A stretch of DNA of 64,000 nt, taken from assembly GCA_964187785.1 (NCBI GenBank), contig OZ076410.1, positions 52,948,001 through 53,012,000 of the forward strand. Reading direction: 5' to 3'. The position numbers were made by a program, and so were the translations under genes. The DNA is from Amphiscolops sp. MND2022. Its lineage: Eukaryota. Under the pieces are notes generated by a model. The model was not told where the DNA came from and searched no databases. It saw nothing but the letters and a program-made list of their open reading frames with translations. Of this stretch, positions 39,316 through 40,344 are shown piece by piece. Position 1 is the first letter of the stretch; the number at the start of each line of letters is the position of its first letter.

Positions 39316-40344
39316 TTATGTGTAGGTTACAGGTACACCGAAGCGGTCTGGGGCCCTGCGGTTTCGAAGGGGTCTCGATTTTCCGGTGTCTGCGCTACAG
39401 GGATCCAATTGCGGCGTCGTTGGGAACAGGGTGAAGCTTCTTCGGGGGATTAGAGATTTCCTCTCACTGGCTCTTGGAGTTTCTGCCTCAACTGGAGTAC
39501 GTGCTGGATCAGCTGGCGTGCCCAGCTGCAGTGTCTCCAGTACTGTCCCGTCGCGTGTCCCTGCGCTCAGAAGGGGTCCCGGCGTCAATGTCTCGTCTGC
39601 AGCCACAGGAGTACCTTGGGTATCGGTATTGGATACTCTCTGTCCCATTGTCGCAGTGTTGGGCATCCAGAACTGTTGTTCCTCGTCCTCACTGTCACTG
39701 TCCCCCGTCATTGCCACATTTTCAAGTTCGCGTGCCCGTCGATACAAGTGTGCCATGGTCGTCAGCCCCCTTTTGTTGGGATGAATGCCGTCCCGAGACA
39801 TCAAGTTTTTTCCCTCCAATTGCTTGTAAACGTCGATAACTTCTATCTGCGTTGAGGCTGCCTTTTGTCTCCACGTCTCCAACTGCTTCTTTAAACAGTT
39901 GTTGAATTTTGTCACCAGGTCGTCGTGGTGAGCAAGCGAACCTTCGAGGGGAGGCAGAGTACAGACCACGAGTTTTGATGGCTGGAACTTGAGCACAAGG
40001 TCATCCAGCAGTTCTTCGTACGATCGCCACATGGTCTTCGGAGTTGCTGAACCTGACAATATGTCGTTCGTGCCAATGCACAGCGCCACCACGTGTATCC
40101 TCGTTGCGTCTGACCTCTTGAGTCGCCGCCGTAGTTCGTCTATTGTGATGCCACTGAAACCCGTGACTACGCAGTCATCCGCTACTTCACGTGCTCGCAG
40201 TCGCTTGGTTATTGAATCACCTAAACAGAGGCTACCAAACGGGTTAGCAGGTATTTCTAAACAAAATTTCTTGGCAGGGGATTGGAAATTAGGGTTTTCC
40301 TTTGATGTCTGTTTTCCGGTTATGGTGCCCGTGGGTCCCCAGTC
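39316..40344 (-). CDS. SGNH/GDSL hydrolase domain plus integrase-type C-terminal tail (out-of-frame end of pol)
   Basis: Frame open from 40344: LGDSI (Ser at 40213-40215), FSG, IGTND and DGIHP blocks; ends RPLRNRRAPDRFG; no ATG before the GDS block. Confidence 0.85.
   Translation of the reverse strand, partial: DWGPTGTITGKQTSKENPNFQSPAKKFCLEIPANPFGSLCLGDSITKRLRAREVADDCVVTGFSGITIDELRRRLKRSDATRIHVVALCIGTNDILSGSATPKTMWRSYEELLDDLVLKFQPSKLVVCTLPPLEGSLAHHDDLVTKFNNCLKKQLETWRQKAASTQIEVIDVYKQLEGKNLMSRDGIHPNKRGLTTMAHLYRRARELENVAMTGDSDSEDEEQQFWMPNTATMGQRVSNTDTQGTPVAADETLTPGPLLSAGTRDGTVLETLQLGTPADPARTPVEAETPRASERKSLIPRRSFTLFPTTPQLDPCSADTGKSRPLRNRRAPDRFGVPVTYT

Follow-up and report, generated by a model that had tools for sequence, protein, structure and literature searches.

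Here, we describe an SGNH/GDSL esterase domain embedded in the integrase tail of a Ty3/Gypsy retrotransposon. The window analyzed is a 64,000-nt stretch of DNA from Amphiscolops sp. MND2022. In the family to which its element belongs, Pol is ordered macrodomain-like domain, protease, reverse transcriptase (RT), RNase H, integrase (zinc finger, core and SH3), acidic linker, SGNH domain, low-complexity tail and terminal Arg-rich motif. It is virtually certain, in our judgment, that Pol has this order, that a single lineage gained the esterase by insertion into its variable integrase tail, and that the window contains a decayed copy from that lineage.

Results

A complete set of SGNH catalytic blocks

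The frame at 39316–40344 (minus strand) spans 342 aa from stop to stop in the ORF listing of the window. It contains GDS at aa 42 (40221), SG at aa 64, GTND at aa 91 and DGIH at aa 185, so that blocks I, II, III and V of SGNH/GDSL hydrolases, with Ser, Gly, Asn and Asp-x-x-His, are all present. A preliminary description of this DNA had reported these blocks as intact, and had stated that no Met precedes GDS; both observations hold, the first Met being aa 105, C-terminal to GDS. It had also proposed a search for an SGNH profile match. Three Pfam families match the frame above their curated cut-offs: PF13472 (E 5e-13), PF00657 (E 1.4e-11) and OSK (E 4.9e-9). The SGNH match is far beyond chance. 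In a 49-sequence alignment, the Gly and Asn of block III, the Ser and the His are each at least 90% conserved, and all three GDS/GTND/DGIH-type motifs are unbroken in 8 family proteins.

An AlphaFold2 model built from the same alignment (pLDDT 96.4, pTM 0.91) has the five-stranded alpha/beta flavodoxin-like fold of SGNH hydrolases. It superimposes on solved members at Z 19–21, with an rmsd of about 2 Å over 159–170 residues. The highest-scoring solved structure, at Z 21.3, is 7pzg, a bacterial sialic-acid esterase with 17% identity. Because the next nine matches, which act on varied substrates, score Z 18.6–20.0, the fold gives no indication of the substrate. Sialate O-acetylesterases head a profile search, with a profile that also contains bacterial-type sequences. 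No haemagglutinin-esterase is named among the best 50 matches of either fold search. The ZfL2-1 chain is likewise absent from the best 50 PDB matches; only representatives were compared and the ZfL2-1 crystal form is domain-swapped, so neither absence is evidence. Oskar ranks 29th, at Z 16.3 versus 21.3 for the best match. The domain is mildly basic (pI 8.9), and no hydrophobic segment is seen in the last 390 residues of Pol (residues 1380–1768), where the maximum 19-residue hydropathy is 1.14. Motifs and model together predict an SGNH hydrolase with a complete catalytic set, capable of ester hydrolysis.

The surrounding element

The esterase frame lies within a complete LTR retrotransposon at 33784–47275 on the minus strand (Table 1). 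This is a young but broken env-bearing Ty3/Gypsy element. It has TG...CA LTRs, a primer-binding site, a polypurine tract and a 5-bp target-site duplication (4–6 bp is expected of LTR retrotransposons), and both its PR-RT-RH-IN order and its gag with a CCHC knuckle are those of Ty3/Gypsy (Metaviridae). The primer-binding site agrees at 10/12 bases with the 3′ end of tRNA-Asn(GUU) as listed in the accessible supplement of PMC13524379. The heptamer at the gag stop suggests an ordinary, putative programmed −1 gag-pol frameshift. In its sequence anatomy the env-like ORF resembles ORF3 of errantiviruses, with a predicted signal peptide, cleavage site, fusion peptide and transmembrane anchor; it has no Pfam or PDB sequence match, and its single-sequence model reaches a pLDDT of only 36. 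The 207-aa frame between pol and env, for which neither Pfam nor the fetched proteins gave a match, is a possible accessory gene. The gag frame and the env-like ORF are unbroken, versus four breaks in pol of the same copy. The two LTRs differ by 22 nt in the length of a (GA)n run (34508–34550 and 46301).

Table 1. Features of the Ty3/Gypsy element, listed from the 5′ to the 3′ LTR
Feature	Position	Strand	Evidence or remarks
5′ LTR (TG...CA)	45577..47275	-	versus 3′ LTR: 1691 matches, 8 mismatches, 3 indels
Primer-binding site, tRNA-Asn-like	45564..45575	-	one base inside LTR end
gag frame, unbroken	44511..45584	-	357 aa stop to stop; PNMA-like capsid, CCHC knuckle
TTTAAAC slippery heptamer at gag stop	44514..44520	-	sequence; identical heptamer at gag stop of relative L001
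TARG1/OARD1-like macrodomain, Pol N-terminus, before protease	44005..44430 (approximate)	-	mapped from family proteins; stop at 44230-44232 in window copy
Aspartic protease	43582..43851	-	PF13975 E 5.8e-11
Reverse transcriptase and RNase H	42000..43052	-	PF00078 3e-37, PF17919 4e-33; frame break upstream near 43222-43226
Integrase	40320..41510	-	H2C2 zinc finger, core (in-frame stop 41172-41174), acidic linker
Integrase GPY/SH3-type p58 C-terminal domain	40458-40565	-	Pfam/sequence
Frame break, integrase linker/esterase frame	40326..40335	-	placed by alignment to relatives
SGNH/GDSL hydrolase domain	39748..40224	-	Pfam, motif map, alignment, model; Ser44 (40213-40215), Gly65, Asn93, Asp185, His188 (39781-39783), frame numbering
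Integrase tail remainder, low-complexity	39316..39747	-	ends in Arg-rich terminal motif (39337-39375) and pol stop
207-aa frame between pol and env	38429..39052	-	Trp/Tyr-rich
env-like ORF, unbroken, 701 aa	36192..38297	-	signal-peptide-like start at Met22, RQPR then hydrophobic peptide, 17 Cys, 8 sequons, C-terminal transmembrane segment
Polypurine tract	35506..35517	-	sequence
3′ LTR	33784..35505	-	LTR alignment; 5-bp target-site duplication TAAGC at 33779-33783 and 47276-47280

Elsewhere in the window, a Mutator-like DNA transposon adjoins the 5′ LTR (47584–49928); it holds a FLYWCH-MULE transposase frame (48388–49584, minus strand) between inverted repeats of about 148 nt. Tandem repeats occupy 53420–58779 and 7279–13135, with three copies of a unit of about 1.79 kb (95–98% alike) and two of a unit of about 3.07 kb (92–97% alike). 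A decayed fragment of a second, distant Gypsy integrase lies at 62715–63060 (minus strand).

Integrase and esterase in one frame

In the window, the esterase frame overlaps the integrase-frame stop (40320–40322) in the −1 frame, with GGGG at 40337–40340. The preliminary description had noted this overlap correctly, and had placed it near the GGGG; alignment to relatives refines the site of the actual break to a few bases downstream of that run. It had overlooked three further breaks in the same pol. The four comprise two stops (44230–44232 and 41172–41174) and two frame breaks (near 43222–43226 and 40326–40335). No slippery heptamer of the form X XXY YYZ occurs in 40320–40400. Sequence comparison thus identifies the break after the integrase as decay, one of the four in this pol.

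Relatives of the window copy bear this out. An esterase search among long proteins matched 2/700 candidates, P0001 (1756 aa) and P0002 (1340 aa), and one among shorter proteins matched 8/525, including P0008 and P0010, in which the integrase SH3 domain is joined to SGNH. The 90% cluster of P0008 has 52 members, 15 of which we looked at. One of these, P0167 (1768 aa), shares about 97% identity with the three pol pieces of the window and is open across all four break points. RT, RNase H, integrase and SGNH all lie on one chain in P0001, P0002, P0005 and P0167. The family proteins include near-duplicates (P0001/P0004 and P0002/P0005).

The junction is reached by 16 of the 28 family proteins examined. 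Fourteen of these continue into the esterase-side frame and two stop as the window does, a count biased by the fact that the first 14 family proteins were mostly found via the esterase. Among 14 cluster members picked independently of the esterase, seven reach the junction, with five continuing and two stopping. One of the proteins that stop is identical to the window frame and probably represents the gene call of the window itself; the second, P0172, shows 6 differences in 239 residues relative to the window. The spacing from SH3 to GDS is 91 residues in all seven family proteins measured. A programmed −1 frameshift at the junction is therefore rejected, given the missing heptamer and the 14/16 proteins that read through. 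The preliminary description had proposed that integrase and SGNH were fused in the ancestral pol, and had suggested asking whether other copies read from one into the other in frame. They do, and the fusion extends to present-day copies, as natural proteins in a single frame.

The records of L001 (positions 1–5295), P0002 and P0005, which contain this Gypsy pol, are labeled by NCBI as bacterial metagenome-assembled genomes. A bacterial origin of the element is rejected because all three are Gypsy pols 94% identical to the window element in RT-integrase, and the labels probably reflect eukaryotic contamination of the bins. No locus with the esterase domain of the window was found in metagenome_contigs or viral_contigs.

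Position of the esterase within the integrase tail

For comparison, we used 94 pols retrieved with the integrase core as query. The SGNH profile matches 4/4 family pols (E below 1e-62) and 0/92 other Gypsy pols, some of which may be truncated. In the nearest esterase-less pols, 53–66% identical in the integrase core, SH3 and an acidic linker are followed by an Arg-rich motif at the extreme C-terminus. In the window frame, the corresponding stretch is RPLRNRRAPDRFG at aa 324–336, with six residues beyond it before the frame ends. In the esterase family, the motif lies 7 residues from the end, C-terminal to the esterase.

We scored this motif in the 52 esterase-less pols in which a GPY/F box is present and the tail is shorter than 300 aa. 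It falls within the last 45 aa of 37/52; 500 shuffles gave 0.7 on average and never more than 5. A first, strict pattern had given 30/59 (including the 4 family pols); the looser form adopted afterward is the one to which the 37/52 and the shuffle control apply. Since the same motif closes 37/52 esterase-less tails, the esterase was inserted inside the integrase tail. The earlier remark that the protein ends like a Gypsy integrase is in this way substantiated.

In an RT-RNase H tree (89/95 sequences kept, midpoint root), the esterase family forms one clade (support 1.0) within a 15-member clade (1.0), the other 12 members of which lack the esterase. A single gain rests on parsimony, because the nodes between the family and the 15-member clade are weak (0.03–0.68). 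Decayed pieces of a more distant family also carry the esterase domain, at 39–50% identity. Among them, P0018 has an SH3-like stretch before the esterase, and P0037 and P0082 have the motif after it. In another of the proteins, P0196 (2339 aa), a Gypsy gag-pol, the integrase tail continues in frame into env-like sequence.

Selection was assessed pairwise against L001, the one relative with DNA. For the esterase, dN/dS is 0.23 (95% CI 0.13–0.38), significantly below 1. This is about 5–9 times the value for RT, RNase H and integrase (0.03–0.05) and similar to that of the disordered flanks, that is, the linkers and the tail (0.22–0.33, with wide intervals). By this single pairwise comparison of sequences, the esterase is under purifying selection, no stronger than on its flanks.

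A macrodomain in the same Pol

The macrodomain at the Pol N-terminus is recognizable in the family proteins P0003 and P0163, which match human OARD1 at E 7e-11 and 1.5e-6. In alignment, and with what we take to be the TARG1 residue numbering, the positions of the catalytic dyad and the Gly-rich loop are not kept. The dyad itself is described in PMC7050489. A related macrodomain occurs in 8/92 other pols, mid-Pol in P0188, P0191–P0194 and P0199 and near the N-terminus in P0269 and P0271. Its position thus differs among Gypsy pols, which indicates that the domain moves within Pol among lineages. On macrodomains in Gypsy elements, our literature search gave one review, PMC4977317, whose accessible part mentions macro ORFs in fish endogenous retroviruses. 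Separately, P0056 (626 aa) is an ORF1-like protein with both a macrodomain and SGNH, the two domains that flank this Pol.

Origin of the esterase

A search of 1.84 billion representatives with the esterase gave 232 matches, 150 of which we looked at. Among the matches listed, the best after the family itself are proteins of about 300 aa with an N-terminal helix, a low-complexity linker and SGNH. In a domain tree (149/152 sequences, 164 columns), the fused proteins form a clade (0.88) within a 52-member clade (0.96) that also holds PHD-SGNH, macro-SGNH and these helix-linker-SGNH proteins; the sister of the fused clade is supported at only 0.50. The nearest relatives have coiled-coil, PHD and CCHC architectures like those of ORF1 proteins of CR1/L2-type LINEs. 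The closest Atlas clusters are eukaryotic (score 0.94). A scan for the genomic context of the ORF1-like relatives gave five loci at 23–32% identity, of which the two examined (L002 and L004) are prokaryote- or phage-like and irrelevant. From these sequence relationships we infer that the esterase was captured from a LINE-ORF1-type mobile-element pool. A link to the SGNH domains of LINE ORF1, drawn in the preliminary description, is plausible from the domain tree, though not proven. Within the same broad clade, P0029 and P0050 join DUF4078 to the esterase; they may represent a host gene into which the domain was incorporated, or an artifact of joined gene calls.

Discussion

SGNH domains in retroelements are themselves known, and what follows on published systems refers to the accessible portions of the papers cited. 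Such domains are reported in LINE ORF1 (PMC3905857), in Terminons (PMC6431247, PMC5718144) and in a Helitron (PMC4021074). An esterase inside the integrase tail of a Gypsy Pol is an arrangement for which we found no published report; Repbase, GyDB and most subscription journals lay outside the search, such that prior annotation is possible. The survey of env-carrying Ty3/Gypsy elements, PMC13524379, does not contain esterase, hydrolase, GDSL or macro in its accessible text, nor SGNH, GDSL, lipase or esterase in 7 supplementary files. In the accessible parts of PMC9025612 and PMC7599744, SGNH is named in the reference lists only.

Several known systems resemble the present one in part. Rotifer Vesta LTR elements, like this family, have an intact SGNH/GDSL domain downstream of the integrase (PMC5408684). 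There, however, GDSL is a separate ORF3 and the elements mostly lack env, whereas here the domain lies inside Pol, between SH3 and the terminal motif, in frame in 14/16 family proteins, and an env-like ORF follows. Ngaro tyrosine-recombinase elements likewise have an SGNH hydrolase after the integration enzyme, but they differ in retroelement order, encode SGNH in a separate overlapping ORF, and have neither LTR nor env (PMC9210276). With the esterase-type ORF1p of CR1/L2/RTEX LINEs such as ZfL2-1 (PDB 4c1b; PMC3905857), the esterase shares the SGNH fold, five catalytic positions and similar gating residues (I/T/I versus I144/T194/L281). It differs in its LTR host element, in lacking a coiled coil and in being fused to integrase rather than Gag-like in position; it lies in the integrase tail of a Gypsy Pol, not in a non-LTR ORF1 that begins with a coiled coil. 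At the 'transposon-specific' positions H191 and S228, which are needed for activity in ZfL2-1 (PMC3905857), the family apparently has two cysteines, as placed by motif offset and not by structural superposition. Chromoviruses carry a foreign domain, the chromodomain, in the same position C-terminal to integrase (PMC13524379, PMC12440569), and Copia elements have taken an MBD into Pol (PMC6673714). Those are binding modules for chromatin marks, whereas here the domain has an enzyme fold with an intact active site. In layout, the element matches the 'ancient errantiviruses', env-carrying Ty3/Gypsy elements of invertebrates, with which it shares gag-pol-env order, LTRs and a tRNA primer site; its env-like ORF resembles their F type, with signal, furin-like site, hydrophobic peptide and transmembrane segment (PMC13524379).

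What might the esterase do? Its position toward the C-terminus of Pol and its lack of a hydrophobic segment point to the cytoplasm or the inside of the capsid. The ZfL2-1 esterase slowly hydrolyzes pNP esters, including pNP-acetate. It also binds anionic phospholipids and liposomes, and its binding to anionic liposomes does not require the active site (PMC3905857). By analogy, the domain, coming from a LINE-ORF1-type pool, may be an active, slow carboxylesterase that binds anionic phospholipids. Its expression, via the gag-pol frameshift, would match that of Pol, and it would travel within the particle, either on integrase or cut free by the protease. It could then anchor Gag-Pol or the pre-integration complex at cytoplasm-facing membranes, and hydrolysis of acyl esters would release them, during assembly or during trafficking to the nucleus. 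We put this proposal forward tentatively, being slightly more doubtful than confident of it as a whole. The preliminary description had suggested that, together with env, the domain may act on lipids or acetylated glycans. The ZfL2-1 work (PMC3905857) makes the former reasonable to infer; topology speaks against the latter, an action on glycans alongside Env.

It is also conceivable, if unlikely, that the esterase serves in counter-defense. On this account, the Pol-borne enzyme would remove acyl or acetyl marks carried by host or element proteins or by metabolites and, with the TARG1-like macrodomain, undo modifications that restrict the element. The presence of a TARG1/OARD1-like domain on the same Pol is consistent with such a role, as is the union of macro and SGNH domains in P0056. 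In seven close sister pols or near relatives, a related macrodomain lies elsewhere in Pol, and in more distant ones it is N-terminal (8/92 matches in all). Yet sister lineages have the macrodomain without the esterase, and the family macrodomain does not conserve what we take to be the TARG1 dyad positions and Gly-rich loop. Deacetylation and depalmitoylation are among the possible roles given in PMC3905857, but the ZfL2-1 esterase is inactive there on histone-derived acetyl peptides.

Somewhat less probable again is a targeting or RNA-binding module, in which catalysis would be secondary. The domain would then act from the chromodomain position as an OSK-like tether of integrase or particle to chromatin or to germ-line RNA granules. 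The position is right, being C-terminal to the integrase SH3 domain as for the chromodomains of PMC13524379 and PMC12440569, the Pfam OSK score is 36.2 against a cut-off of 27, and OSK pulls down mRNA in vitro (bioRxiv 2025.05.02.651258). However, OSK is catalytically inactive according to the same preprint, whereas the family retains the full catalytic set, and Oskar is far from the best structural match. Nor is oligo(A) RNA bound by the ZfL2-1 esterase in the accessible data.

That the domain is a passenger, a captured LINE fragment kept in frame only because the terminal integrase motif downstream needs to be translated, is quite improbable. Its dN/dS does overlap that of the flanks, and esterase-less sister families are abundant, with clusters of up to 512 members. 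On the other hand, dN/dS is significantly below 1, the catalytic motifs are invariant among variants about 80% identical in the domain, and the distant family at 39–50% identity has the domain with the motif just after it.

Viral haemagglutinin-esterases, which have the SGNH fold, are outward-facing surface glycoproteins with a signal peptide and a membrane anchor. The preliminary description had raised a similar role here; on such a reading, O-acetyl removal from cell-surface glycans would aid Env-mediated entry or release. An enveloped element with the common fold, an unbroken env-like ORF, a sialic-acid esterase as the best structural match, and sialate O-acetylesterases at the head of a partly bacterial-type profile search all fit with this idea. 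But the domain sits at the end of Pol with neither a signal peptide nor a transmembrane segment, and would therefore be within the particle; varied-substrate enzymes follow directly behind 7pzg. Because the esterase has no route out of the particle, we consider such a role beside Env very unlikely, marginally more so than a passenger. Hardly tenable, and largely refuted by the full-length natural fusions, is a separate or recoded ORF reached by −1 frameshift, splicing or its own start: the window and P0172 do stop at the junction, and GDSL is an ORF3 of its own in rotifer LTR elements (PMC5408684), but 14/16 proteins continue through, the junction lacks a slippery heptamer while gag-pol has a conserved one, no Met precedes the catalytic Ser, and the window copy has three other breaks absent from its relatives.

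The copy in the window is itself dead, and its element type is otherwise familiar. Its significance lies in the Pol it reveals: the Gypsy integrase tail, known for chromodomains, can take up a whole enzyme. Esterases recur in unrelated retroelements (LINE ORF1, Ngaro, rotifer LTR ORF3 and Terminons). Here, the esterase is joined to integrase and would be present in Pol stoichiometry and within the particle, and the element also has an env-like gene; this argues against the view that esterases of this kind serve only as substitutes for Env, and suggests a step inside the cell. Related Gypsy families that lack the esterase offer a natural comparison. A bolder reading, to which we give little credence at present, is that of an enveloped retrovirus-like element with two host-modification modules in one Pol, the macrodomain at the front and the active esterase on integrase. 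The tethered esterase would remodel membranes or strip acyl marks, such that the pre-integration complex leaves vesicles or reaches the germ-cell nucleus after Env-mediated entry. If true, the integrase-tethered esterase would represent a post-entry enzyme step not previously known in LTR elements or retroviruses.
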